Virus record (IMG/VR): IMGVR_UViG_3300029928_000023
Coordinates: 1 to 36,138 of that record
Length of the DNA: 36,138 nucleotides
DNA from: a virus
Strand: one strand, 5' to 3'
Of the stretch, positions 1 to 36,138 are shown piece by piece. Numbering within the stretch: the stretch's first letter is position 1; the number at the start of each line of letters is the position of its first letter. The notes under the pieces are model-generated. The model did no database searches. It was not told where the DNA came from and worked only from the letters and a program-made list of their open reading frames with translations. A program made the position numbers and the translations under genes.

Positions 1-99
1 GGCAAAAGATGCTGGCATGGATGAATACATCATAAAGCTGATAGTTGGTCATTCTATCGAGGATGTGACTGAGAAAGTATACACCCACAGGACCATGGA
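1..99. repeat. Terminal direct overlap: 1-99 is identical to 36040-36138, marking closure of a circular contig or a terminal redundancy
   Basis: Base-by-base comparison: ggcaaaagatgctggcatgg...acccacaggaccatgga occurs at both ends. Confidence 0.95.
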
Positions 100-2609: not shown

Positions 2610-3575
2610 TTATCCTTTCCGTGTAGCATCTCCTACACTATATGATATATCAACAGTATCATCATTTAACTTAACTATTATGTTTGTAATACTACTTATC
2701 ACATAAGCATCCGTCACACTTTCATATCCACCAATTACATCACCTATATGTCGCTCAGTATCACTGCTTGTAACTTCAAACGCATCAGATCCTATCAGTT
2801 CTTTCAATCTCTCTGTTCCGCCAGAGACAAGGTCCTCAACAGATTCTGCAGATGTGTTCTCATAAGTACTCACATATTCTTCCACTCCATATAGGCTTTG
2901 AGATGTACTTATATTTCCATTTGCATCAGCATATAAGTGCACTACAGTTCTGTCCTGAAGTTCTCCCTGTCCGAGACATATAAGGTGATTTACTCCCTTA
3001 TATGTCTTGGTAAGTGTGAAATTCACATCGTTCTGGTTGTATTCTATCCGGTCAGAATAATCGATCACTGGAACATATGATACATGCACTATACCGTCTT
3101 TTACTGACAAGTACAGATTCATTCCAATTGATGCACCAAGCTTTATTAAACCTGTATAAAGATCTGTATATCTTGCAAACTGATATGAATTAATCGAAAT
3201 TCCACTTTTATCTGCTACAAAAACGCTTTCAAGTCCACAAACTCTAAAAAGGCTCTGAAGCACATCTCCTATATTTCCCGATACAATCCTGTATGCAGAG
3301 CCATTTGGAGGCTCTATGATCTTACTCATAAGTACTCCCCTGAAACTTCTGCCTGAATATCTGATCTCATTATTCTCCGTTATCACTTTTACGGAATCTA
3401 CAACTCCGCCATACTCTGTATCATTGACATACCACCAATAACCTCCATGCATGACATTGTTTTTAATGCCAACTGTAATCTCAAAATTCTTCTTATCAGC
3501 AATATCAAGATCAATTTCATATTTATGTAGACATCCCTCATCATTCAAATTCCGATCCATGTAAATTACATCCAA
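2610..3575 (-). CDS. Tail tip / minor structural protein (Siphovirus Gp37-like, tentative)
   Basis: 321 aa, located after Dit and overlapping it by 10 nt. The N-terminal pattern MDVIYMDRNLN...YEIDLDIA...FEITV resembles Gp37-like tail proteins. The call is mainly position-based. Confidence 0.45.
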   Translation of the reverse strand: MDVIYMDRNLNDEGCLHKYEIDLDIADKKNFEITVGIKNNVMHGGYWWYVNDTEYGGVVDSVKVITENNEIRYSGRSFRGVLMSKIIEPPNGSAYRIVSGNIGDVLQSLFRVCGLESVFVADKSGISINSYQFARYTDLYTGLIKLGASIGMNLYLSVKDGIVHVSYVPVIDYSDRIEYNQNDVNFTLTKTYKGVNHLICLGQGELQDRTVVHLYADANGNISTSQSLYGVEEYVSTYENTSAESVEDLVSGGTERLKELIGSDAFEVTSSDTERHIGDVIGGYESVTDAYVISSITNIIVKLNDDTVDISYSVGDATRKG

Positions 3576-4390
3576 AGTGGTTCGCTCCTTTCAGCTTTCA
3601 AAAGCAAATCAAAGTTAAATGTAGAATTCCAATATACAACCTGTTTACCCGATTTTATTTTTTGAAAGATATCACTTCCCCTATTTCTATACCGAAACAG
3701 GTTCACTGTTGCACCATTCAATTTAAACAGCTTAATAGTCTGCTTCTTTGAATCGATCTCAACTCTTTCTCCTGTTTGTATCGTATAGTTCAATATATAA
3801 GTATGTCCGCCAATAGATATAGCTGGATTCTGTGCATACCCATATATGGTCAAGATAAATTCAGATTCACTAAAGCTATCATTTGCAACTTGTGCTGCAT
3901 ATCCCGGAGATGCCGTATAGTCATATTCATATCCGTATGGATAACCTCTGCCGGTTTCATCTACTGGTATATCTTTATACCGATATTCTTTTAAATCTTC
4001 TTTCACCCATGCATCTGCCGCTGTTACTATCTTTAACGACAGTTTTGTGTGTTGCCCTATTAGATAATCTGACTTATCACTTGCATAGATGAAACATTCA
4101 AGATAATAATTGCCAATATACAGTTTTCCGGGCACTTCATTAATGATATCCTGCTCAAACAGTTCAAACATATCATTCTTTACACGATTGCATATTCTTG
4201 GAGTTGGACAGCATATAGTGACCGGAAGTGTCTTTTCTGTAATTTTCTTTTGAAAATTCTCAACACACTTCCGATCACTATCATAGATCCACTGATAATT
4301 CCGGAGGTCATTTTCATTTGCAAAGATATATTTCTTTCCAAACTCAAGAACATTCCCCTGACTATTTACATATTTTATATTCTCAAGCAT
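3566..4390 (-). CDS. Distal tail protein (Dit-like phage tail family protein)
   Basis: 274 aa, immediately downstream of the tape measure gene with an 8-nt overlap, which is the conserved Dit position in siphoviruses. Confidence 0.55.
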   Translation of the reverse strand: MLENIKYVNSQGNVLEFGKKYIFANENDLRNYQWIYDSDRKCVENFQKKITEKTLPVTICCPTPRICNRVKNDMFELFEQDIINEVPGKLYIGNYYLECFIYASDKSDYLIGQHTKLSLKIVTAADAWVKEDLKEYRYKDIPVDETGRGYPYGYEYDYTASPGYAAQVANDSFSESEFILTIYGYAQNPAISIGGHTYILNYTIQTGERVEIDSKKQTIKLFKLNGATVNLFRYRNRGSDIFQKIKSGKQVVYWNSTFNFDLLLKAERSEPLWM

Positions 4391-10281: not shown

Positions 10282-11307
10282 TTACGCAATCTTGATGTTA
10301 CGAAGCGCACCTGCATGCTGTGTGTTTTTAAGAACTGTAGCTGCGATCATCTCTACTTCAGCATCCTTTACTGTTCCCGGCTTACTGAAATCAGGCAGAT
10401 ACTGATCAATAACTGAACCACCATTCAGGCTGATTCCGTGGAATCCATCGTTTACATCAAACTTGACTGCATAGATATCTGTAAGACCTGTTGTTTCTGT
10501 CTGTTCAGATCCAAGTTTTCTCTTAAGGCCTTTCTTAACAACAGAATTTGCAACAGCTGATCCACTTGATACGGTGTAATGATTCTGCATATCGATAAGC
10601 TTCACTCCATCAATCGTAGTGATACGCTTTCCGAATGCTTCCTCACTCTCTGTCTTGTATCCAAGGATACGGGCTACAGTCTGAATCTTTGTGATCATCT
10701 CTGTGTTTGTAAGCACTGCATCAGCATCTGTAGTCTTGATAAGGAGACTCAGAGCCTCATAGAACTCATCAGCGTTTGCTTTGAGTGAAGTGATAGATGA
10801 AAGATCAATAGCCTTGTCTGTGCCGTACTCTGTCGTTGTTCCAGCAATCATAGAATCAAGACCCTGAAACTCCGGATGATCACCAGATGCTGTTGTGGTT
10901 GCATCTCCATTAATCAGCGTGTAGTGGAATAAAGACACGATTGCCTTGATATGTTCCTCGATCTGATATGCCATGTTGTCAAAGTTACCAGCAACCTTAT
11001 TGAGCACTCTGTCCATCTGAACTGCTCCGCCCATGATCGCAAGATTTGCTTCGCACTCCTGCTTTGTAGCTGCTGATGCAGTATAAGAACCGCCTATCTT
11101 TCTAAACTCCGCTGTAGCTGGAAGTACTTTTCTGAGATACTTATACTTCATTGTTGAGCCACCGCCTGATGCTGATACACAGTCATCAAATGTCAGTGAC
11201 TGTAATACTGTTGACTGTCTAAGAAAGATATCCACGATCTGTGAAAATACCTTGTCACTCATACCTTTCTTAAGTTCTTCTAATGTCATTGCCATAGTTT
11301 TCACCAT
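10282..11307 (-). CDS. Major capsid protein
   Basis: 341 aa, directly after the scaffold gene. The N-terminus MTLEELKKGMSDKV...LQSLTFDD is typical of Firmicutes siphovirus capsid proteins. ATG 11295 (MAMTLEEL) has better GGTGA spacing than 11307. Confidence 0.75.
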   Translation of the reverse strand: MVKTMAMTLEELKKGMSDKVFSQIVDIFLRQSTVLQSLTFDDCVSASGGGSTMKYKYLRKVLPATAEFRKIGGSYTASAATKQECEANLAIMGGAVQMDRVLNKVAGNFDNMAYQIEEHIKAIVSLFHYTLINGDATTTASGDHPEFQGLDSMIAGTTTEYGTDKAIDLSSITSLKANADEFYEALSLLIKTTDADAVLTNTEMITKIQTVARILGYKTESEEAFGKRITTIDGVKLIDMQNHYTVSSGSAVANSVVKKGLKRKLGSEQTETTGLTDIYAVKFDVNDGFHGISLNGGSVIDQYLPDFSKPGTVKDAEVEMIAATVLKNTQHAGALRNIKIA

Positions 11308-11316
11308 TCCTTTCTT

Positions 11317-11961
11317 TTACTGGTTATTTGCATTTTCATACTGCTGTTTTAATGCCTCTGCAAGTGTCTTCGGTTCGCTGTTATTTGCGTTCGGATCACC
11401 CTTCTGAAGCTGGTTTTCAAGGATGTTCTTCTGGTTACTTCCAGCACTTTCAAACTGGTTCGGAAGCTGTGTCTTGAGATCTGCAAGCATGCTATCCCAT
11501 CCTTTGATGTTGCCATCATCGTCCAGTTTAAGCTCCGTATTCTTTTCTTTCAGGTATGCCTTTAATTTGTAAGCAACATAATCAACATCACTTACATGAG
11601 CAGATAATAACGCAACTTTAATAGCTGAATTAACTCTCGTTTCCTCAAGTTCCTGCTGCAGTCTTGTATTTTCAGCTTCATAAGTAGAAATCTTCTGCTG
11701 CATCCCCTCGTCGCCTTTAGATGCTTTTTTCAGTTCCTCAATGAGCTTATTTGCATTGCCAATCTCTGTGTCTTTGCCAGTGATCAATCCATTGAGTTTT
11801 TCAATCTCTGAATCATACTTCTCTTTGCTGACGTACTTGCCCTCGGACAGATCCGTATATCTGACATGATTAAGTTTATCCGGCTCTGCGCTGTTCTTCT
11901 CGTCAATCTTTGCCTGTACCTGTTTGTACAATTCTTCTCCTAACAGTTCCTTTAATTCCAT
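11317..11961 (-). CDS. Scaffolding protein
   Basis: MELKELLGEELYKQVQAKIDEKN..., highly charged and coiled-coil-like. The start is set at ATG 11961 after AAAGGATGGA. Lies immediately upstream of the capsid gene. Confidence 0.75.
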   Translation of the reverse strand: MELKELLGEELYKQVQAKIDEKNSAEPDKLNHVRYTDLSEGKYVSKEKYDSEIEKLNGLITGKDTEIGNANKLIEELKKASKGDEGMQQKISTYEAENTRLQQELEETRVNSAIKVALLSAHVSDVDYVAYKLKAYLKEKNTELKLDDDGNIKGWDSMLADLKTQLPNQFESAGSNQKNILENQLQKGDPNANNSEPKTLAEALKQQYENANNQ

Positions 11962-12068
11962 TGTTCCATCCTTTCTTGGCTTTAATCGTAGCCACACATG
12001 GCAGTTATCACTCTTGCCGGAGTTATTTTATCGTCACAGTTTTACCGCCTTAAGCCGATTTTTGGGCA

Positions 12069-12098
12069 TAAAAAAAGACCATGTTTTTATCATGGTCT
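12069..12098 (-). terminator. Rho-independent terminator inside the head module, after the Zn-ribbon ORF
   Basis: On the minus strand, AGACCATG (12098-12091) pairs with CATGGTCT (12083-12076) around a 7-nt loop, followed by TTTTTTTAT. Confidence 0.75.
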
Positions 12099-12136
12099 AA
12101 ATTACTAATTATTTAATTGCATTAGAAAGCACTCTG

Positions 12137-12331
12137 CTAATGCGGAGTGCTTTCTCTATTCACTGTCAACACTATTCCTGTTTCACATTTGTCGCATTTA
12201 AAAACTTTTGTAGTTTTAGGATCCCCAACTGCGGAAATATACCCCTCTTTGCAACGTGAGCATTTAATTTTTTCACCGTTTCTCATACGTTTTATACGTT
12301 CTAACGAATTATTTGTATACATATCTACCAT
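12137..12331 (-). CDS. Small zinc-ribbon protein (CxxC...CxxC); candidate partner or immunity protein for the MuF C-terminal domain
   Basis: KCSRCKEGY ... KCDKCETG. It starts 5-14 nt after the MuF stop. ATG 12322 (MYTNNSL) has better spacing from AAGGGG than 12331. Confidence 0.6.
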   Translation of the reverse strand: MVDMYTNNSLERIKRMRNGEKIKCSRCKEGYISAVGDPKTTKVFKCDKCETGIVLTVNRESTPH

Positions 12332-12335
12332 CCCC

Positions 12336-13847
12336 TTATGTGAGTTCAGGATACAACTTTTTTACTAATTTTAGTATATCTTCTTTATCTTGTTGTGTCA
12401 ATTCTCCCTTTCGATGGATAGTTTCAGCTTCAAAACATTTTACTTCCTCATCTAAAGTGCCCTTTCCGCCTAATTTTCTATGTGTTGCCTCATGTATTAA
12501 AATCTCCGCTGTCTTAGCCGTGGTTTTTGTTTTATCACAAAATACAGAAATAACATCATCCATCGAGTCATAATATCCATACAGACCATCAGGGTTATCT
12601 ATGCCATAGAGCAACTTAATTGGCACTTGATTTTTCTGTATGTATTCAAGGCTTTGCTTTCCTATATCTGATTTACTCATATCTTTCATAATATTTCTAG
12701 GTCTGATTGAATCTGCCTTAGTAATATTTATAGTATCAAATATACCTTCCGAAATAGGTTTCTTACGATACATCGGATTGCCATCAAGCAATCGTTTGTA
12801 CTTACTATATTCTTTATCAGACATAGTATCCAATACCTGTCTGAAGTTCTTCCTACCATACTTCTTTTCCATTTCAGTCACATGGTTCATGTAAGCAATA
12901 TTCTCATCAGACCAGTATTTTTTCTTGAATTCCTCGTATTCCTCTGGAGATTGAAATGAGACAATCTCCTTGGAGAAATTGTCCATTTTTATTATACCGC
13001 CTTCCAATGCCCATCTAGCATTCTGCAATAAACAGCAACGGCAATTACAATCTTCTGCTGGATCTCCAAACATCCCCGGAGCATCTACCTGTATACCACC
13101 AGCTTCAAAAGGTTCATCTATTTCATTAATCTGTCCATCAAGCAACCTGTGTAAATCCCTTGTTTTTCCATCAAGAGTAGCATCCCATTTTTTTACTATA
13201 TCTGCTCCTCTATCTTTGGCAGCCCTCTGCGCATCCATAGCAGACTGCACTTGTATGCGATGCCCTTCTGTTCTTGTAATTCGTATAGCATTATTATAAG
13301 CTTTAGAAAAAGCTGTATATCTGAATGTTCTCGCCATATTTGCAGCAATTTCATTATAGGTTTTTCCTGCTGCTACTCCCCTAGACACTTCATTACAAAC
13401 TGATTTTTTTAGCTCGTTTACATCTTCACCAAGACTATCATATAATGGCTTGCTTAACTTGCTATCTGTTTCAACAGCCCTAACAACAGCTTTCTGATCT
13501 ATAGCAGTAACGATAGGTATACCCTGTCCATGCAGATCATACATAGTCCCGACATAGCCATCGTTGTAGCACTTTGTCAGATAATCTGACACGGTTGCAT
13601 ATGCATTACTCTGCAAGGCACTCAAGGCACCTTCAAGCTGTGCCTTCAGTGCCTCTTGATATCTTCTCTGATATATTATACTTTGCAGATTTTCCATATC
13701 TGTCCTTGCAGACAACTCTCTGATCTTCTGCTCACAATCTCTCAGTGCCTGCTTATATGTATGCTTCAGACTGGCAATAGTTTTTTCCTCGTTATGTAGT
13801 TGTTCCTCAATTACTTCTTTCTGTCTCTTATTCATATTACATTTCAA
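12336..13847 (-). CDS. Head morphogenesis protein (SPP1 gp7 / Phage_Mu_F domain) with a ~170-aa C-terminal extension carrying an HExxH motif
   Basis: MuF core ITRTEGHRIQVQSAMDAQ ... DATLDGKTRDLHRLLDGQ ... DPAEDCNCRCCLL. The C-terminal extension contains LIHEATHRKL (HEATH encoded at 12480-12494). Confidence 0.8.
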   Translation of the reverse strand: MKCNMNKRQKEVIEEQLHNEEKTIASLKHTYKQALRDCEQKIRELSARTDMENLQSIIYQRRYQEALKAQLEGALSALQSNAYATVSDYLTKCYNDGYVGTMYDLHGQGIPIVTAIDQKAVVRAVETDSKLSKPLYDSLGEDVNELKKSVCNEVSRGVAAGKTYNEIAANMARTFRYTAFSKAYNNAIRITRTEGHRIQVQSAMDAQRAAKDRGADIVKKWDATLDGKTRDLHRLLDGQINEIDEPFEAGGIQVDAPGMFGDPAEDCNCRCCLLQNARWALEGGIIKMDNFSKEIVSFQSPEEYEEFKKKYWSDENIAYMNHVTEMEKKYGRKNFRQVLDTMSDKEYSKYKRLLDGNPMYRKKPISEGIFDTINITKADSIRPRNIMKDMSKSDIGKQSLEYIQKNQVPIKLLYGIDNPDGLYGYYDSMDDVISVFCDKTKTTAKTAEILIHEATHRKLGGKGTLDEEVKCFEAETIHRKGELTQQDKEDILKLVKKLYPELT

Positions 13848-14382
13848 TAGACATCGTGAAAGCTCTTACTTCTCCCTGCTTAATTGTTACCGGCTCGAAT
13901 GTTTCTCTTGCCATCAAATTTTTAAAATATGCGCTTGGTGTTGCTCCTGTTGTTCCATCTGTACACCATGCCAAAAACCATCCAATTTCTGATACAGTTA
14001 TATCTTCGTTGCTATTGTTTTTTACCGTTATCGTGAATACTCGATTTGTATTGTAGTTTTCCTTATAGCTTTCTATAATGCTTACTACATGCAAGCCGCC
14101 CTCAGAATATGCATAAGGAGCTTCTAACGTATAGTCATCCTTCGCTGGTTCTGTCGTTCCAGATCCAAGGAAGATATAGCTTCCGTTGTAAAACGTATCT
14201 ATTGAATAGTCGCCCAGTGGTGCATTTGCGTATATCTGGTTTAAATATGCATCTATCCAGCTAGAACTACCTACGTTGTTATCTACTGTCTTTATCTCCC
14301 CATTTATGTCCTTAAATGTAGTAGTCACCCATTCTCTTGATAGAAATGCATTTAACAATTGCATAAAATTTGGCATTATCAT
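13837..14382 (-). CDS. Hypothetical structural protein (181 aa)
   Basis: AGGAGG RBS. Coupled to the flanking genes, overlapping the MuF start by 11 nt. The motif FLGSGTTEPAKDDYTLE is reminiscent of phage fibre-associated proteins. No firm assignment. Confidence 0.5.
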   Translation of the reverse strand: MIMPNFMQLLNAFLSREWVTTTFKDINGEIKTVDNNVGSSSWIDAYLNQIYANAPLGDYSIDTFYNGSYIFLGSGTTEPAKDDYTLEAPYAYSEGGLHVVSIIESYKENYNTNRVFTITVKNNSNEDITVSEIGWFLAWCTDGTTGATPSAYFKNLMARETFEPVTIKQGEVRAFTMSIEM

Positions 14383-14396
14383 TTTTCGTTTACCTC

Positions 14397-15746
14397 CTAA
14401 CTTAATTCTTTTATTGCTGTAAAATCTTCCGTTCCTTTTGTTTCAAAATAAGTATCCGAAACATTGTCATATAGCTTTGGTTTGCCATCTGCATCATATT
14501 TTGGTACAAAATCACGAACAAGTGTGTCACCGTCATAAATTTTGCAATAATAAATATCTCCTATTTCACCCTCTGAAAATAACAGTACATTATTTTCATT
14601 TGAAGAATAATCGAATGTCTGTTTGCTTCCTGCCGCAAGCGTTTCACTCGTCTTTAAATCTTTGATATAACAGTTGCCAAGCTCATATTCATATGTCTTT
14701 GTTACATCGTCAGATCTAAGTATACATCGACCACTTTCTCCACCATAGTCAAGATAGAAACCATTTCCGTACCCAAAAAACCTTAGTGCAGTTGCTGGAT
14801 CGACATACATTCCAGCAAAATTAATTCCTGTCAGTTTGTCCATTTTGAATTTAAGTTGTATTTTAATTGTGTCTTTTGCTTTTACTCCAGTGTCAACCCA
14901 GCTGTTTCCATCCGAATGCACAGCGACAAATTTTTCTTCAAGCTTGCGACTTGTAACCTTTGTCTTTATTGCTTCGCCCACATGTGTTATTGCACCGATC
15001 TGGTTTGATGTGATCGTCTTTATCGCATCGCCCGCATGTGTGATCGTTGATCCTGAACCTCCTGCACTGCCTCCTGTCTTTATCTGACGTACATTTTCGG
15101 CCATAGTTGCAAAGCTGTCTGTACTTTCAGTAGCCACTCCTTTCTCAGTGATGGCACTGGCTACTTCTGTTTTTCCATCACTGACAGATTTTTTTAGGTT
15201 TTCTTCCGTTTCTTCTATCCTTTTCAACCGATCACCAACAATCTTTGCATCTGCCGCTTCACCGGATATAGACAAAGTAGAATCGACCTTAATCAAATAT
15301 TTCATAAACTGTGCAATGATATCTTTCTCCTGCCCGCTGTCTATTGTCTTTCCAAGTTCGCAACCATCAAGAACCCTGCAAACTGAAAGCTCTGTATTAT
15401 ACTCATGCGTTATATTCGATTCCTCATCAATCTTTGTAAAGCAGATCACGAAGCCAACCATGCCTGGGACTCTGCAAGCCGTAGCCCCTACGATCCACGA
15501 AAATGTAATATAATCTTCAGTTGTGAGCATATCATCAACGGCATAACAATCTGTCTCATTGTCCTCATTCACATAATTGACCTTTATGCTGAACTCAGAC
15601 ATATCATTATTCTGATAATATCTCGGCATTTTAAAATGCTTTCTTGTCACATTTTTATCATGATATACTCCGAGTATCTTCTCATTTCCCGGAAGTGTGA
15701 TCTTTCTCAAATTGCTATCTATTTTGCAATATGTAATATTCTCCAT
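14397..15746 (-). CDS. Fibre / receptor-binding-like protein: BppU-N-like N-terminus, Gly-rich linker and a C-terminal lectin/jelly-roll-like domain
   Basis: N-terminus ITLPGNEKILGVYHDKNVTRKHFKMPRYY...FSIKVNYVNEDNE. Linker KTGGSAGGSGS with an internal repeat ITHAGDAIKT / ITHVGEAIKT. The C-terminus LLFSEGEIGDIYYCKIYDGDTLVRDFVPKYDADGKPKLYDNVSDTYFETKGTEDF is a motif I recognise from gut-phage fibre C-termini. Confidence 0.5.
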   Translation of the reverse strand: MENITYCKIDSNLRKITLPGNEKILGVYHDKNVTRKHFKMPRYYQNNDMSEFSIKVNYVNEDNETDCYAVDDMLTTEDYITFSWIVGATACRVPGMVGFVICFTKIDEESNITHEYNTELSVCRVLDGCELGKTIDSGQEKDIIAQFMKYLIKVDSTLSISGEAADAKIVGDRLKRIEETEENLKKSVSDGKTEVASAITEKGVATESTDSFATMAENVRQIKTGGSAGGSGSTITHAGDAIKTITSNQIGAITHVGEAIKTKVTSRKLEEKFVAVHSDGNSWVDTGVKAKDTIKIQLKFKMDKLTGINFAGMYVDPATALRFFGYGNGFYLDYGGESGRCILRSDDVTKTYEYELGNCYIKDLKTSETLAAGSKQTFDYSSNENNVLLFSEGEIGDIYYCKIYDGDTLVRDFVPKYDADGKPKLYDNVSDTYFETKGTEDFTAIKELS

Positions 15747-15748
15747 CT

Positions 15749-17200
15749 TTATTCTTCACCACCTTTTACCGCTTTCAACAGATCCTGCGCTTTTTTCGTA
15801 TCGTCTTCTTCCTTTGCCGGTAACTTGTCTTTTATCTCCTCATAGTCAATATCTAACCAATCGCAAATAGCCTTAACTACAGTCTCATCATCAAGCACAT
15901 TCGCAACACTCAAGATCGTATTAATCTCTGCCTGTCTGGTTTGCGCTTCGGTCAGCTTGATCTGTGCATTTTCCTGCGCATTACTCATAATCTCATGGGT
16001 AAACTCAAACCGGACATCCTCAACCTGATATGCAGTTCCATCCGCATTGTTAATCTCATCTACGACTATCTCAACCAGCTTACGCAGCATCTTCTTGAGA
16101 TTTTTCTCTATCTTTTTTGCTTTCAGATCCAGAAGTGAATAGGCCGCTTTAATTGCTATATTCGTAGTTGCTGATGTATCTTTAAGCCCGGCGGTGTTTA
16201 GCCCCATACCAAACCGGTATATGTTCTTCTCGTCAAGTTCAAGCTTCGCCTGTCGTGCCTGATATGGGACATCAACAGTTTTAATGTCAATTCCGCCCTC
16301 TTCCCCCAAACCAACTATCTTCTTTGTCTTAAGGTTGGTCTGAAGCTCATCAAGATTATCTCCCTCAAATCCTTTTATTGCATAGATTGGGGAATCAAAG
16401 TCAATGAGATTGTTTGACAAGCTTGAAGCCATCAAATCATAGTCATCTATAAGTGGTTTCACCGGTCTAAGGCTTGAAAACTGCTTCTTATTGTTATCCA
16501 GCCGGATAAATGGAATATACCCAAATCCATCAAAGTAAGTAGCATCTTTCTTATCTCCTTGTGTATATAATACATGCGGTCTCGGATTTACCTGCTTTGA
16601 TTCATCAAGCTGTACATCTCCACCATCAACCTGAGTATAGAACCATGTTTCTTTTTCATCCCATACCTGTATGCGTTTTATTATCTTTCTGCCCTTGTCG
16701 ATACGTTCAATGTAATGATATATCGTATATTTGCATCCATCGTCCGCATCCTTTTCTCTGACTTCTATTACATCCAGCGCATCAGCCGCCGCAAATGCCA
16801 TCTTATCTTTTGCATTTTTGTACGCATACATATATGCCCAGCCCTTTACCTGACTATCTGTGATACAATCTGATAGTTCAGATATAAAGCTATCATTGTT
16901 GTTAAAATAGTTATCCATATAGGTCTGTAGCTTCTGATCATCTGCTACAACAAACCGATCATCAGACAGCACATACTGAGTACACTGATCAACAAGCTCC
17001 GTAAAGAACGGATGCGATATCCTCACATTGCTCCGTGTTAGATCTTCTACTAACTTGCCATCTGCATTGTAGTAAAACAATCTATACTTGTTTATATCGT
17101 GATCTCCGTCATAGTAGCGTTCGCCTGTTCTGGCAAACTGCTTCTTATCTGATGTTTTGTCATTATCAATCAATACCTTTATTTCATCAGTGGTTAACAC
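15749..17200 (-). CDS. Portal protein (SPP1 gp6-type)
   Basis: 483 aa, directly after TerL. The N-terminal motif FARTGERYYDGDHDI is typical of SPP1-family portals. Confidence 0.85.
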   Translation of the reverse strand: MLTTDEIKVLIDNDKTSDKKQFARTGERYYDGDHDINKYRLFYYNADGKLVEDLTRSNVRISHPFFTELVDQCTQYVLSDDRFVVADDQKLQTYMDNYFNNNDSFISELSDCITDSQVKGWAYMYAYKNAKDKMAFAAADALDVIEVREKDADDGCKYTIYHYIERIDKGRKIIKRIQVWDEKETWFYTQVDGGDVQLDESKQVNPRPHVLYTQGDKKDATYFDGFGYIPFIRLDNNKKQFSSLRPVKPLIDDYDLMASSLSNNLIDFDSPIYAIKGFEGDNLDELQTNLKTKKIVGLGEEGGIDIKTVDVPYQARQAKLELDEKNIYRFGMGLNTAGLKDTSATTNIAIKAAYSLLDLKAKKIEKNLKKMLRKLVEIVVDEINNADGTAYQVEDVRFEFTHEIMSNAQENAQIKLTEAQTRQAEINTILSVANVLDDETVVKAICDWLDIDYEEIKDKLPAKEEDDTKKAQDLLKAVKGGEE

Positions 17201-17212
17201 CTTTTCACCTCG

Positions 17213-18619
17213 CTATACCAGCCATGTTCCCTTCGGCTTATCATTCTCATATACACCAGTCAGAGTATCAGGCGCATCATCGTGCGCATTCTTTCCCTCT
17301 TTCTGATATTTCCTTATTGCTTCCGCAAAATCCGGCCATCTATCTTCCCAGTTCACCGGAAAGACTACATTCTGCATTACTCCTGTACTGTTCGACAGGA
17401 TTCTCGATATCTTATTCTTTGATTGAAAGAACCACTGTATCTTAGTATGGGTATTCCCTAATGCTTTCAATTCTCTTATTACATTCCTGCTGAATCCACG
17501 ACCGCCATTGTTACTTTCTATCAAAGCATTACCAACATTATTCTTGGTAAGCATCTGAGCTGTCGCTGGTTCAGTCACTTCCATAGGTGCCTTTGTATAT
17601 AAGACATCAAGTATGTAGTATGTACTCTCATACATGCCATAACAAATAGAACACAGGTAATCACTACCTGTGTCCGCTGTATCTGTATAATTCAATATAT
17701 ATTTGAACAGGCTATTGCCCTTACTATCCCTTGGAATATCCGTATACGTCTTGATATGGCTGTATAATCTGCCTTTGACATCTATTGGCTCCTGCTGATA
17801 GTTCGCAAGGACTATATCCTTATTCATGTTCTTTGTTTTTATCTTGTAGTCCTTATATGACAGGATAGCTTCACAGAGCATTGTTCCATCGTCTTGTACT
17901 GCCTTGTAATTGATATGTACTACATCGTCATAGTTTGCAAGTACATAACCGGCTAGATCCTTTGTTGACCATCTTGTCATTATTATGATAATCTTGAAAT
18001 CATTCTCGGTTCTGGACAGCATTGTATTGTTGAACCAGTCAATCTGCTTCTGCAATACTGATTCATTGTAGGCTTCCTCACTGTTCTTGATAAGATCATC
18101 TATTATCATAATGTTACAACCAAATCCGGTTGCTGTTCCTGTTGGAGATGTTGCAAGGTAATTAGCCTGTTGGCTGCCCTCAAGACTCCATTTCTGTGCT
18201 GCAGCCTCTCCGTATTTTATTTTTGTACCAGGGAAGATATCTCCATATGTCAGAATACCCTCTGTAGGCTTTTCTGCTATAACATCCCTGACAGCCTTTG
18301 CAAAGGTTCCTGACAGGGTCTCATTATATGAGCCTGTCATAACCTTTTTATCTATACCATATTTACCGAATAGCCACTGGACAAATTTTGTAGCTGTTCG
18401 TGACTTTCCATGTCGTGGCGGCATATTTACAACCATTATCTGTTGTTCTGCATCCTCTACAAACCACTGTAGCTTATCTGCAAGATCATGCAAGAACGCT
18501 CTGTCGTTACTATAGAAATCAGGAGAGGTTAGCTTACAATATTGCCAGAACTCTCTCTTTGATAGTTCTATCTTTAGCTGTTGCTGTAATAAAGGGTCGT
18601 GTCTATCAAACATCATCAA
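17213..18619 (-). CDS. terL: Terminase large subunit
   Basis: Walker A-like NMPPRHGKS, Walker B IMIIDD, and a coupling motif region MTRW. Overlaps TerS by 14 nt. Confidence 0.9.
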   Translation of the reverse strand: MMMFDRHDPLLQQQLKIELSKREFWQYCKLTSPDFYSNDRAFLHDLADKLQWFVEDAEQQIMVVNMPPRHGKSRTATKFVQWLFGKYGIDKKVMTGSYNETLSGTFAKAVRDVIAEKPTEGILTYGDIFPGTKIKYGEAAAQKWSLEGSQQANYLATSPTGTATGFGCNIMIIDDLIKNSEEAYNESVLQKQIDWFNNTMLSRTENDFKIIIIMTRWSTKDLAGYVLANYDDVVHINYKAVQDDGTMLCEAILSYKDYKIKTKNMNKDIVLANYQQEPIDVKGRLYSHIKTYTDIPRDSKGNSLFKYILNYTDTADTGSDYLCSICYGMYESTYYILDVLYTKAPMEVTEPATAQMLTKNNVGNALIESNNGGRGFSRNVIRELKALGNTHTKIQWFFQSKNKISRILSNSTGVMQNVVFPVNWEDRWPDFAEAIRKYQKEGKNAHDDAPDTLTGVYENDKPKGTWLV

Positions 18620-32802: not shown

Positions 32803-32831
32803 TTATTAGTATTCATTTTGTGAACTAGTAA
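32803..32831 (-). promoter_or_regulatory. Degenerate duplicate of the PR promoter/operator cassette, downstream of the Cro-like gene
   Basis: On the minus strand, TTACTA-gttcacaaaatgaatac-TAATAA. The 17-nt spacer matches the PR spacer at 16 of 17 positions. Confidence 0.45.
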
Positions 32832-33025
32832 GGCAAAAAAATATTTTCCCTAGGGAAACTACAAATATCTGCATACATTCTTAATTCTGCCTCTTTCATC
32901 TTTACCTTACCGCTTTCCCAATTACCAACAGTAATACGAGAAACGCCCATTTTATCAGCTATATCCTGCTGTGAAAGCCCAGCATTTACTCTAACAGCTG
33001 ATAATCTTATCTTTAAACTATTCAA
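32825..33025 (-). CDS. Cro-like XRE-family regulator
   Basis: LSQQDIADKMGVSRITVGNWESGK. TTG start 8 nt after GAGGAGG. Divergent from the CI-like gene. Confidence 0.75.
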   Translation of the reverse strand: MNSLKIRLSAVRVNAGLSQQDIADKMGVSRITVGNWESGKVKMKEAELRMYADICSFPRENIFLPY

Positions 33026-33058: not shown

Positions 33059-33087
33059 ATTATAGTATTCTTTTTGTGAACTGTCAA
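33059..33087 (-). promoter_or_regulatory. Early lytic promoter (PR-like) with an operator in the spacer
   Basis: On the minus strand, TTGACA (33087-33082), N17 (gttcacaaaaagaatac), TATAAT (33064-33059): both hexamers are perfect consensus. Confidence 0.75.
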
Positions 33088-33171: not shown

Positions 33172-33546
33172 ATGGGTGCAAACCAATTTGCTAAATTATT
33201 AAAATATTATCTTATGCTAAACGACAAAACTCAGAGTGATTTAGTCAACGATCTTGGATATGAAAAATCAACAGTATCAAATTGGTGCTCTGGTGCAAGA
33301 GTTCCCAAAATTGATACAATTATAGATATTGCTAAGTACCTGCATGTTGACCCGGGAGATTTAATAGTCGAATCGGAAAACAAACCTACATATTACTTTG
33401 ACGATGAGACAGCTAAAAAGGCACAAGAGATATTTGAGAACAAGCAGCTCTCTCTTCTCTTCGATGCTGCAAGAGATGCTGAACCGGAAGATCTTGAAAC
33501 CGTTCATACAATGCTCATGGCTCTGAAAAACAAAGAAAAAAGATAA
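33172..33546 (+). CDS. CI-like XRE-family prophage repressor (no S24 peptidase domain)
   Basis: KTQSDLVNDLGYEKSTVSNWCSGARVPKIDTIIDIAKYLHVDPGDLI. Divergent from the Cro-like gene. The C-terminus is helical and lacks a Ser/Lys autocleavage domain. Confidence 0.8.
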   Translation: MGANQFAKLLKYYLMLNDKTQSDLVNDLGYEKSTVSNWCSGARVPKIDTIIDIAKYLHVDPGDLIVESENKPTYYFDDETAKKAQEIFENKQLSLLFDAARDAEPEDLETVHTMLMALKNKEKR

Positions 33547-33872: not shown

Positions 33873-34319
33873 ATGAACATTACGGAATATATAAAAACAC
33901 GAGTTGATGATCAGATTGCATGGTATGATAAAAAATCCGTAACATGCCAGCGTTGGTATAAGGTCTTTCAGGCAATAGAAATTTTCATAGCCGCCAGCAT
34001 TCCTGTACTCTCCGGTTATGCCAGCAAGTATGGTGTAATCCCTTTGATTATAGGTATTGAGGGAGCTATTATAACTATAGTTGAATCTATCACCAGATTG
34101 TACAAGTTCCATGAAAACTGGATAGAATACAGAACTACATGCGAACTTCTGAGATATCAAAAACATTTGTATCTTACAGGCTCTGCACCATACAATGCAG
34201 AACCTGAAAGCATTGAAAATATTTTTGTAAGGAATATTGAGAATATTATATCTTCTGAAAATAATAAATGGAAAGCTGTCAATATGCAGGAAACAACAGA
34301 GAAAAAAACTGTTAATTGA
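33873..34319 (+). CDS. DUF4231 / SLATT-like two-transmembrane protein
   Basis: [13 protein letters not shown]...[21 protein letters not shown]...[19 protein letters not shown]...[23 protein letters not shown] is the DUF4231 architecture. GGGGGGA RBS. The gap to the upstream gene is only 22 nt. Confidence 0.7.
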
Positions 34320-34543: not shown

Positions 34544-34960
34544 ATGACTATATATAATATTTTTATAAGCCACGCTTGGAAATATTCCGAACATTACAAA
34601 AAAATTGTCCAGTGGCTTGATGAGGCACAGGCAGAGGGTAAATTCAGATGGAAAAACTACTCTGTTCCAGAACATGATCCACTTATTGATCCAAACAGTT
34701 CGGCCGGTAAAACCAAACTAAAATCAGAACTTAACGAGCAGATCCGACCAGCAACAAAAGTTATTATCCTTGCTGGTATGTATGCTGACTACAGTGATTG
34801 GATTGAATATGAACTTACCACCGCCGTATGCATGAATAAGTGCATAATTGGCGTAAAACCTTGGGGACAGGAACGTGTCGCTGCTATTATAACTAATAAT
34901 TCCGACACTATTGTAGGTTGGAATAAAGATTCCGTTATTAATGCAATTTTAAATTCTTAG
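34544..34960 (+). CDS. Stand-alone TIR-like domain protein (DUF1863 / ThsB-like, 'Tir chaperone'-type)
   Basis: YNIFISHAWKYSEHYKKIVQWLD...NYSVPEHDPL...VIILAGMYADYSDWIEYELTTAV...IIGVKPWG...VGWN. The S-x-W-x-x-x-E-L region aligns with the TIR catalytic-Glu motif. Confidence 0.7.
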   Translation: MTIYNIFISHAWKYSEHYKKIVQWLDEAQAEGKFRWKNYSVPEHDPLIDPNSSAGKTKLKSELNEQIRPATKVIILAGMYADYSDWIEYELTTAVCMNKCIIGVKPWGQERVAAIITNNSDTIVGWNKDSVINAILNS

Positions 34961-35113
34961 GATTTATTATAACAGATGTAAATAATTATAACAACCTGTG
35001 TTCCTCGGCATACCAGCCGGGGAATACACTTAAAATTGAATAGTGTATTTAACCGGGCAGCCGAGGGGTGTTACACCATATCCGTTCGAGTCTTGAAAGA
35101 AAGGATGATTGAT

Positions 35114-36138
35114 ATGAGAAATGCAAACGGATTCGGATCTGTGTATAAGCTGTCTGGCAAGCGCAGGAAGCCATGGATTGCCCGTAAAACAAAAGGATGG
35201 GCTATTGACGAAGAATCAGGAAAGGCTAAGCAGTTATATGCTACCATCGGCTATTACAGCACCCGGACAGAAGCTCTTACTGCTCTGACCAATTATAATC
35301 AGAATCCCTATGATATTGATACCGCAAATATTACATTCTCTGAACTCTATGATAAATGGTCAGATATACATTTTCAGGAAATTGTACCATCTGCCGCAAG
35401 AACATGGGTATCTGCTTACCATCATTCAAAGTCTCTCTGGGACATGCGAATGAGAGATATTCACCCTAATCACATGGAGGGAACGATCCGGAATGCAGAT
35501 GTTGGTCAGAGTACGAAGCAAAGAATGAAATCTCTCTACAACATGCTCTATAAATATGCTATGAAGCTGGAGATTGTTGATAAGAACTATGCCAAGATGT
35601 GTGATTCCATCAAGCGTGGAAAGCCTCAGATCATTCGTGTTCCGTTTACTCCGGAGGAAATAGATCTGCTCTGGGAGAATATAAACTATGGTGTTGTTGA
35701 TATGATTCTAATTGGTATATACAGCGGATGGCGACCACAAGAACTGTCTATCTTGAAAATAGCTGATATTGATCTGGAAAATAATACCATGTTCGGCGGT
35801 CTTAAGACTGATGCAGGGCGCAACAGGTGCGTTCCTATTCATTCAAAAATAAAAGATCTGATCATAAAAAGAGTAGATCAGGCTAAAGAATTGGAATCCG
35901 ATTATTTATTCAATGATCCGGATAGTCAGTCTGGTATGCGCATGACATACGACAAATACAGAAGCCGTTGGAATAAGGTCATGGGAAAATTAAAACTCTC
36001 CCACCGTCCTCACGATACAAGACATACATTTATTACATTGGCAAAAGATGCTGGCATGGATGAATACATCATAAAGCTGATAGTTGGTCATTCTATCGAG
36101 GATGTGACTGAGAAAGTATACACCCACAGGACCATGGA
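35114..36138 (+). CDS. int: Tyrosine integrase. It runs off the window end and continues at 100-133 of the circular sequence; 352 aa in total.
   Basis: ATG 35114 lies 8 nt after AAAGGA. N-terminus GFGSVYKLSGKRRKPW. Catalytic signature GWRPQEL ... HDTRHTF ... GH ... KVYTHRT. It is absent from the ORF track because there is no in-window stop. Confidence 0.9.
   Translation, partial: MRNANGFGSVYKLSGKRRKPWIARKTKGWAIDEESGKAKQLYATIGYYSTRTEALTALTNYNQNPYDIDTANITFSELYDKWSDIHFQEIVPSAARTWVSAYHHSKSLWDMRMRDIHPNHMEGTIRNADVGQSTKQRMKSLYNMLYKYAMKLEIVDKNYAKMCDSIKRGKPQIIRVPFTPEEIDLLWENINYGVVDMILIGIYSGWRPQELSILKIADIDLENNTMFGGLKTDAGRNRCVPIHSKIKDLIIKRVDQAKELESDYLFNDPDSQSGMRMTYDKYRSRWNKVMGKLKLSHRPHDTRHTFITLAKDAGMDEYIIKLIVGHSIEDVTEKVYTHRTM

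Follow-up and report, generated by a model that had tools for sequence, protein, structure and literature searches.

A HExxH metallopeptidase-like MuF tip and an adjacent zinc-ribbon gene as a probable toxin/immunity cassette in a temperate gut phage

The 36,138-nucleotide (nt) virus record IMGVR_UViG_3300029928_000023 of IMG/VR, which was analysed over its full length and is called the window below, carries on its minus strand a gene for a MuF-type phage head protein whose C-terminal tip contains the zinc-metallopeptidase motif HExxH. This gene is directly followed by a short open reading frame (ORF) for a zinc-ribbon (Zn-ribbon) protein. An earlier reading of the sequence (the original prediction) had suggested that the two genes form a toxin/immunity cassette, and this interpretation is strongly supported by comparative genomics. 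The tip is swapped among MuF proteins with closely similar N-termini, it is shared by unrelated carrier proteins, and the Zn-ribbon gene accompanies it in 87 of 87 evaluable loci and in 6 of 6 loci from cellular genomes. We place at roughly 0.7 the probability that the cassette is a MuF-type polymorphic toxin/immunity system within a complete temperate phage of gut Clostridia. A predicted promoter that is embedded in the tip coding sequence and conserved among related phages makes the immunity assignment considerably stronger.

The mechanism proposed here takes SPP1 gp7 as its model, a MuF-like minor head protein that is present in a few portal-bound copies and is ejected with the DNA (PMC5576092). 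By analogy, a few copies of the MuF protein would bind the portal, be packaged and leave the virion with the DNA, and ejection would bring the protease tip into the cytoplasm of the infected cell, where it would cleave one or more host proteins. The Zn-ribbon protein is predicted to bind the tip protease and block it; this inhibition, like the toxicity and the protease activity of the tip, is what we infer from the comparisons described below. While virions are being produced, the late transcript would supply the Zn-ribbon protein; in lysogens, the embedded promoter would also supply it constitutively. Lysogens would then be protected against the toxin of sibling or related virions, and non-lysogens would be unprotected. 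In a more specific form of this proposal, to which we give about even odds, the constitutively expressed Zn-ribbon gene is a ‘moron’ that pre-arms every lysogen, whereas in naive cells the toxin acts ahead of all phage gene expression, which would make the cassette a weapon of kin discrimination and competition. A competition model for MuF toxins was put forward by Jamet et al. (Fig. 6b; PMC5576092), and the mechanism above adds a transcriptional logic to it. If the more specific form is true, the cassette would be the first MuF toxin system whose transcriptional architecture shows the need for immunity in the prophage state, and HExxH tip and Zn-ribbon would together represent a toxin/immunity family that is new and moves widely among carriers of the MuF, VgrG and Rhs types.

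The HExxH tip, its carriers and its exchange among MuF proteins

Residue numbers given here refer to the 503-amino-acid (aa) ORF at 12336..13847 (minus strand). The true start is probably the ATG at 13835 (MNKRQ), which is the start shared by all homologues and yields a gene at 12336-13835 (minus strand) with a product of 499 aa that begins at residue 5 of the longer ORF; the stop codon occupies 12336-12338. The Pfam model Phage_Mu_F covers aa 149-273 (E=1.6e-17, 64.7 bits against a cutoff of 29.6). The original prediction had placed the end of the MuF core near residue 300, at the motif DPAEDCNCRCCLL, a location that needs correction: the motif lies at aa 262-274, and the conserved, SPP1 gp7-like carrier recognized by Pfam and by PHROG families 595 and 115 extends to about aa 311. 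The carrier consequently spans aa 5-311 (aa 1-307 of the 499-aa protein; 12915..13835, minus strand). It is followed by a linker or pre-toxin region at aa 312-360 (12768..12914, minus strand) that ends in ...LLDGNPMYR and, on the basis of homology and of an AlphaFold2 (AF2) model, by a predicted minimal zincin toxin tip at aa 361-503 (12339..12767, minus strand).

The HExxH motif is found where the original prediction had placed it. The segment LIHEATHRKL corresponds to aa 450-459, and its HEATH residues (aa 452-456), the predicted zinc-binding and catalytic motif, are encoded by nt 12494-12480 of the minus strand. The acidic segment DEEVKCFEAE, which had also been pointed out, lies downstream at aa 466-475. 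A word-index search with the tip alone gave five short fragments, and an exhaustive search of the tip profile (aa 361-503) against 1.84 billion representative sequences was used instead. It returned 279 clusters at E<=1e-3, in which the domain nearly always resides at the protein C-terminus. From these clusters, 101 diverse relatives were scanned for residue conservation and for carrier domains. Residues H452, E453, H456, E468 and H478 are invariant among them, and E475 and C471 nearly so, which rules out a chance occurrence of HExxH. The motif pattern of the family is HExxH, a glutamate at +12 and a histidine at +22, followed by ...LT...YP.

The carriers of the tip are diverse. Phage_min_cap2 proteins account for 43 of the 101 relatives, Phage_Mu_F proteins for 20 and VG15 proteins for 11, and the tip also occurs once on a VgrG protein (P0197, with Phage_GPD and Phage_base_V), once behind a PT-TG pre-toxin domain (P0203) and twice at the end of an Rhs core marked by the motif ...DPxG (P0214 and P0246). 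Sharing of a tip by unrelated delivery families is an accepted hallmark of polymorphic-toxin domains (PMC3482391, PMC5576092), and by sequence homology the HExxH tip displays this hallmark.

In the AF2 model of the tip (predicted local distance difference test (pLDDT) score of 93), a small sheet is combined with the HExxH helix (residues 83-99 of the model) and a following helix that bears the invariant glutamate and histidine. Its best fold neighbours among PDB and viral structures are mostly zincins, namely selecase, jannalysin, abylysin, Wss1 and SprT-like, IrrE-like and M10 proteins. The original prediction had proposed to look for relatives among metallopeptidase and toxin families such as Tox-MPTase and SprT. 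On the structural side, the model looks zincin-like and has SprT and Wss1 among its neighbours, all of them weak; no Tox-MPTase model of Pfam was matched. Specifically, Pfam searches at E<=10 gave no match to Tox-MPTase2-5, Tox-HopH1 or ALF-type domains, with the limit that the HMMER filters may drop very weak ones, and NCBIfam gave sub-threshold matches only. The putative metallopeptidase family DUF6782 matches 21 of the 101 relatives at E<=0.001 (best E 4e-8), and the tip is a distant relative of this family and not a member; a literature search found no paper naming DUF6782. Together, the profiles and the model suggest that the tip forms a clade of its own among the toxin tips of the Tox-MPTase class, which are small zincins similar to Wss1, and that this clade lies outside the named families. 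The guanine-plus-cytosine content of the tip is 33%, and that of the tip with the Zn-ribbon ORF 33-36%, versus 40% for the genome.

Exchange of the tip is evident among the closest relatives of the MuF protein. A search at E<=1e-5 gave 4472 relatives, and the best 120 of these were sorted into two kinds. Members of the first kind align over the full length with 49-72% identity. Members of the second kind are closer in the N-terminus (61-89% identity), and then homology ends abruptly. In some of them the break is at about aa 311; in others it is at aa 356-365, right after a conserved ...NPMY(R/K) junction, and the latter have the linker region described above in common with the window protein. 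When the last 130 residues were clustered, about 20 unrelated tips were found on N-termini that are 61-89% identical. Three of the sibling tips pass the Pfam gathering score, as Ntox50 (P0021), CdiA_C (P0018) and Gln_amidase/Tox-PL1 (P0037), and their proteins, along with others, are homologous to the window protein up to aa 356-365 and then diverge. Other sibling tips bear different HExxH motifs or JAB-like HNHP motifs, and two near-identical siblings (P0068 and P0077) are without any tip. Thus, the alignment of MuF homologues that had been suggested as a check reveals a C-terminus that swaps as a module and is not universally conserved with the core. The small ORF downstream is tip-specific and co-varies with the tip: ORFs of 107 aa (acidic, P0006), 65 aa (behind Ntox50) and 61 aa (behind Gln_amidase) follow other tips. 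Judged by sequence, such swapping on near-identical N-termini is what defines the previously described polymorphic toxins of the MuF type (PMC5576092).

Two further features were observed among the siblings. The terminal tips of P0045, P0065 and P0087 carry a JAB/MPN-like HNHP..S..S..D motif. The longer proteins P0005 (from locus L010), P0020, P0021, P0006 and P0063 have an extra HExxH region (ITHEMGHH, with a weak match to Peptidase_M90) between the MuF core and the tip, whose role may be that of a second effector or of a peptidase for release.

The Zn-ribbon gene and its predicted embedded promoter

The Zn-ribbon ORF had been described as a CxxC...CxxC protein of 61-64 aa that starts within 14 nt of the MuF stop codon, and this holds: in its longest form it spans 12137..12331 (minus strand), and depending on the start codon it begins 4 or 13 nt past that stop. 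The most likely start is the ATG at 12322, with a GGGGA ribosome-binding site (12335-12331, minus strand) 8 nt upstream of it, and the resulting protein of 61 aa (MYTNN...; 12137..12322, minus strand) is predicted from co-occurrence to be the cognate immunity protein, that is, an inhibitor of the protease.

Conservation of the Zn-ribbon ORF next to such tips, which had been named as a further check, is supported without exception among the evaluable loci, which include phage, metagenome, VgrG and Rhs loci. Of 88 loci fetched via the tip, 83 have directly downstream (gap of -3 to +17 nt) an ORF that is recognized by the Zn-ribbon profile; the remaining five comprise four in-frame fusions of tip and Zn-ribbon and one locus that ends before the ORF, which gives the 87 of 87 stated above. 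The same order, tip and then Zn-ribbon, accounts for the 6 of 6 cellular genome loci. This adjacency spans MuF subfamilies that have no detectable N-terminal similarity, and it extends to other delivery systems. In the VgrG locus (L090), a DUF4280 (PAAR-like) gene lies upstream and a Zn-ribbon ORF downstream, and the Rhs locus (L091) likewise has a Zn-ribbon ORF; the two downstream proteins (75 and 81 aa) retain the signature ...LKGEK/E..CPxCG....

The reverse search, starting from the Zn-ribbon protein, found the tip immediately upstream in 72 of 79 loci. The seven exceptions are two contig ends, one locus (L107, nt 1506-2677) in which the HExxH tip is precisely deleted and the Zn-ribbon gene is kept, and four loci (L103-L106, nt 2417-2641) in which the Zn-ribbon gene is an orphan behind a Phage_min_cap2 protein with a different tip. 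A second Zn-ribbon copy stands in tandem in L085, L087 and L088 (about nt 3594-3747). Orphan and tandem copies of this kind are typical of immunity genes. Two proteins of the family (P0273 and P0274) are 111 aa long, score about twice as high as single Zn-ribbons and appear to be tandem double Zn-ribbon immunity proteins.

The Zn-ribbon family comprises 221 clusters of 50-111 aa, in which C21, C24, C43, C46 and G16 are invariant; none of the clusters has an informative family name, and a few carry unrelated automatic labels. The AF2 model (pLDDT 80) consists of an N-terminal helix and a three-stranded ribbon with the CxxC knuckles on beta-hairpins, and the nearest PDB folds are the Zn-ribbons of ribosomal proteins and of TFIIB, with weak E-values. 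The protein has neither a signal peptide nor a transmembrane segment, and a cytoplasmic site of toxin action is therefore predicted.

Within the last ~70 nt of the MuF gene, 51 nt before the Zn-ribbon ATG, a promoter scan identified a predicted sigma-70/SigA-type promoter (12373..12401, minus strand; 11/12 consensus matches) that goes beyond anything noted in the original prediction. It is composed of a -35 element TTGACA (12401-12396), a 17-nt spacer and a -10 element TATACT (12378-12373). Its score of 11/12 is not significant taken alone, and the case for it comes from conservation. Most of 40 distinct phage-borne module DNAs have at the same site either TTGACA-17-TATAAT (12/12) or an 11/12 variant; two of the 40 have TTGACC or TTGACG as the -35 element. 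The hexamers overlap an invariant Leu-Thr pair and a (D/x)-I-(I/L) stretch. The leucine is encoded by TTG in 40 of 40 modules, though TTG makes up 35% of their leucine codons; the threonine is ACA in 38 of 40; and the codon preceding the isoleucine ends in T regardless of the amino acid (GAT, ACT, GCT, CGT, TCT or AAT). In a synonymous-site test on 20 lineages below 85% nucleotide identity, the third-codon positions within the hexamers are conserved at 100, 90, 100 and 100%, compared with a mean of 55% for 21 neighbouring third positions. Across 1.0 Mb of fetched loci, 163 of the 178 sites that score at least 11/12 are this embedded site.

The promoter does not accompany every carrier. At the VgrG and Rhs loci, the homologous residues are encoded by other codons and no promoter is present at the site. 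An embedded promoter before the immunity gene was also sought in loci with sibling tips (L006-L009 and L103), and nothing above 9/12 was found; the promoter is therefore specific to the HExxH/Zn-ribbon cassette and not a property of MuF toxins in general. Just one sigma-70 promoter of the window matches the consensus at 12/12. It serves as an internal control, is located at 33087 (minus strand) in the divergent intergenic region between the CI-like and Cro-like genes and is probably the early lytic promoter. An antisense 11/12 site in the MuF gene (TTTACA-18-TATAAT, 13417-13446, plus strand) is probably due to chance.

Termination signals lie on the other side of the Zn-ribbon ORF. The terminator that the original prediction had placed ahead of the scaffold gene is a canonical intrinsic one (12069..12098, minus strand), with an 8-bp stem and a 7-nt loop (hairpin 12098-12076) followed by T7 (12075-12069), and it closes the Zn-ribbon unit. 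To it can be added a second hairpin across the Zn-ribbon stop codon (12124..12155, minus strand), which corresponds by homology to a terminator hairpin, AGCAC...GTGCT, that related loci have; its U-tail is weak in the window. The region of the two hairpins has a folding z of -6.8. Of 20 phage lineages scanned, 14 have a terminator-like hairpin behind the Zn-ribbon ORF, and it often begins 0-4 nt from the stop codon. Because of the conserved embedded promoter and the terminators, the Zn-ribbon gene probably forms a transcription unit of its own, with promoter, ORF and terminator, inside the late operon.

Alternative roles and points of doubt

The alternative that survives best, which we nevertheless consider rather unlikely, is that the tip is a host-takeover or anti-defence effector. 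Its role would be to cut one particular host protein of defence or regulation and thereby aid infection or bias the choice of lysis or lysogeny, and the Zn-ribbon protein would be its inhibitor and, expressed by the prophage, would mainly provide superinfection exclusion against phages that need this protease. Jamet et al. propose the same for tips of low toxicity such as peptidases (Fig. 6a; PMC5576092). Many sibling tips do resemble peptidases or JAB domains (HExxH, HNHP) and not nucleases, and a strong predicted promoter dedicated to the Zn-ribbon gene suits a gene for lysogenic conversion or exclusion. This role and a toxin role differ mainly in how harmful the protease is, and on that question the pairing of tip and Zn-ribbon on VgrG and Rhs proteins is informative, given that such proteins serve as weapons between bacteria, where there is no infection to help along. 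Moreover, sibling phages bear bona fide killing domains (Ntox50 and CdiA_C) at the same position, and a locus that lost the tip but kept the Zn-ribbon gene as an orphan is what one would expect if this gene protects against something harmful. Read from the genomic comparisons, the orphan genes and the presence of the pair on VgrG and Rhs proteins argue for general toxicity.

A second alternative concerns the small protein alone. The Zn-ribbon protein could be a partner of the tip, such as an activator, a chaperone or a subunit that binds nucleic acid or the target, or it could be an unrelated, linked moron, and we regard both versions as improbable. Natural in-frame fusions of tip and Zn-ribbon in four contigs fit a partner, as does the basic, ribbon-like character of the protein, which recalls nucleic-acid-binding Zn-ribbons. 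Orphan copies without a tip and tandem copies would be unexpected for an obligate subunit, however, and an activator would have little use for a promoter that would be active while the toxin gene is off. Accidental linkage to an unrelated moron is excluded by the invariable adjacency (87/87 and 6/6) across unrelated carriers.

The fusions (L022, L024, L028 and L032, about nt 3420-3426) result from a change of TGA to GGA that joins the tip in frame to the Zn-ribbon in a protein of 529 aa. In L017-type relatives, both ORFs are in the same frame and are parted by TGA plus the codons TTG TTT. The L022-type fusion is not among the best 120 matches of the Zn-ribbon profile in the protein database. 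The fusions fit physically interacting partners, and such phages could still produce an unfused Zn-ribbon protein by way of the internal promoter and its ribosome-binding site.

That the HExxH domain is a morphogenetic enzyme, acting in head maturation or self-processing, is very improbable: its position within the head module, where the genes for scaffold and major capsid protein are neighbours, and the best PHROG match (phrog_595, labelled head maturation protease) point that way, but this match is confined to the MuF part (aa 5-363), so that the label is rejected for the tip, an SPP1-type scaffolding protein is present, VgrG and Rhs proteins carry the tip as well, and near-identical phages replace it with nucleases or deamidases or lack it (P0068 and P0077), which makes it dispensable for assembly.

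Several observations weigh against the interpretation of the cassette as a toxin/immunity system. With regard to the tip, the zincin fold matches are weak (E 0.02-1, template modelling (TM) scores of 0.4-0.55; the best at E 0.02-0.3 and TM 0.45-0.55), searches of PDB sequences gave no meaningful homologue for either the complete protein or the profile of the tip, and the match of the tip to DUF6782 reaches 22.2-23.9 bits against a gathering threshold of 27. The candidates for the third zinc ligand are the invariant E468 and H478 or E475, all in the helix after HExxH. Peptidase tips are possibly mildly toxic modulators according to Jamet et al. (PMC5576092). With regard to the partner, many immunity proteins are acidic and this Zn-ribbon protein is basic, and the in-frame fusions in four contigs are unusual for an antidote. 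Finally, the portal and MuF genes are separated by two ORFs and are not directly adjacent.

Relation to known systems and the phage context

MuF toxins are abundant in human-gut Firmicutes phages. To our knowledge, few of their tips have been studied so far, among them an ADP-ribosyltransferase and a (p)ppApp synthetase. Examples of MuF toxins include the EFV ADP-ribosyltransferase and Apk2/IapK of an S. pneumoniae prophage (PMC12226406). The general arrangement in temperate Firmicutes phages, with variable tips and a tip-specific small ORF downstream, is already known, as are metallopeptidase tips, which make up 20% of the MuF toxins surveyed (PMC5576092). The cassette in the window shares with these systems an N-terminal MuF domain encoded in the head module of a temperate phage, a variable tip, a small ORF and gut Firmicutes hosts. 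It differs from them in that no Pfam model matches the tip above threshold, the predicted immunity protein is a Zn-ribbon, the portal gene is two ORFs away, and the immunity gene has its own terminator and a conserved predicted promoter inside the toxin coding sequence. The words ‘promoter’ and ‘terminator’ do not occur in the text of the 2017 study by Jamet et al. (PMC5576092). Peptidase terms are absent from its supplementary tables in text form.

Tox-MPTase1-5 are small zincin tips of Rhs, type VI secretion system (T6SS) and type VII secretion system toxins with a size and fold like those of Wss1, and neither an immunity protein nor an association with MuF is listed for them by Zhang et al. 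(PMC3482391). The tip resembles them as an HExxH domain of ~130-150 aa at the extreme C-terminus that also has Rhs and T6SS carriers and Wss1 among its best fold matches, but it has no Pfam Tox-MPTase match at E<=10 and a different motif pattern. According to the AF2 model, it shares with the minigluzincins (selecase), with Wss1/SprT and with IrrE/ImmA a minimal predicted architecture of a beta-sheet, the HExxH helix and a following helix with the candidate ligands. It departs from these zincins by an additional element of two helices at the N-terminus and by a C-terminal helix; TM scores are about 0.45-0.55 with E>=0.02, and there is no sequence relation. The resemblance to SPP1 gp7 lies in the homologous core and in the expected portal binding, low copy number and ejection, whereas gp7 has neither a toxin tip nor an immunity gene.

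Promoters within toxin genes have precedents in other systems. In nuclease colicin operons, an additional promoter for the immunity gene lies inside the toxin gene. Likewise, T6SS immunity genes of V. cholerae have an extra promoter inside the effector coding sequence (Miyata et al. 2013; PMC3857813). The parallels with the cassette are an immunity gene directly after the toxin gene, an added, in the cassette predicted, promoter within the toxin codons and the potential for immunity while the toxin operon is silent. The differences are that the operon of the window is a phage late operon, that its silent state is lysogeny, and that a near-perfect promoter consensus is kept in numerous phage lineages by selection at synonymous sites, a feature known from sequence.

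Two aspects appear to be new at the level of sequence analysis: the HExxH/Zn-ribbon family, which lies outside Pfam models and is mobile between MuF, VgrG, Rhs and PT-TG carriers, and the conserved predicted promoter embedded in the tip coding sequence. The pair would define a toxin/immunity family that spans phage heads, T6SS spikes and Rhs toxins, and its small Zn-ribbon member may inhibit metalloproteases in a way that represents a new inhibitor type. The cassette also offers a compact test system, with a predicted protease tip of 143 aa that has clear catalytic residues, a predicted inhibitor of 61 aa and a promoter signature for expression in lysogens. Dependence of a lysogen on the Zn-ribbon gene against its own phage would be a direct test of the model of the phage as a toxin syringe.

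The cassette sits in a head module on the minus strand, between the genes upstream of MuF and the scaffold gene. The order is large terminase (17213-18619), SPP1-type portal (15749-17200), two ORFs without annotation that encode 449 aa (14397-15746, minus strand) and 181 aa (13837-14382, minus strand), MuF, Zn-ribbon, SPP1-type scaffold (11317-11997) and major capsid protein (10282-11307). Markers of a temperate lifestyle in the window are a CI-like gene (33172-33546, plus strand), a Cro-like gene (32825-33025, minus strand) and a tyrosine integrase ORF (35024-36138, plus strand) that runs off the right end and continues across the circular junction. The ends of the window (1-60 and 36078-36138) have an overlap of ~21 nt in common (GATAGTTGGTCATTCTATCGA). 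Because of this overlap and of the integrase ORF that crosses the junction, the contig is probably a circularly assembled and complete 36-kb temperate phage. Relatives reside in genomes of Coprococcus, Lachnospiraceae, Acutalibacteraceae and Pseudoflavonifractor.

The slot between portal and MuF (13837-15746, minus strand) is itself variable among relatives and holds zero, one or two different ORFs. It is empty in L001 and L003, and it contains an ORF of 192 aa in L004 and pairs of 231 and 156 aa in L005, 421 and 246 aa in L006, and 258 and 246 aa in L009. It is a second variable slot in the head module.

A PADLOC search gave no match for the MuF protein or the Zn-ribbon protein. In the lysogeny region, a gene for a DUF4231/SLATT_1 protein with two transmembrane segments (33873-34319, plus strand) is followed by a gene for a ThsB-like TIR protein (34544-34960, plus strand), and by sequence the two genes look like a prophage-encoded TIR-SLATT defence pair.

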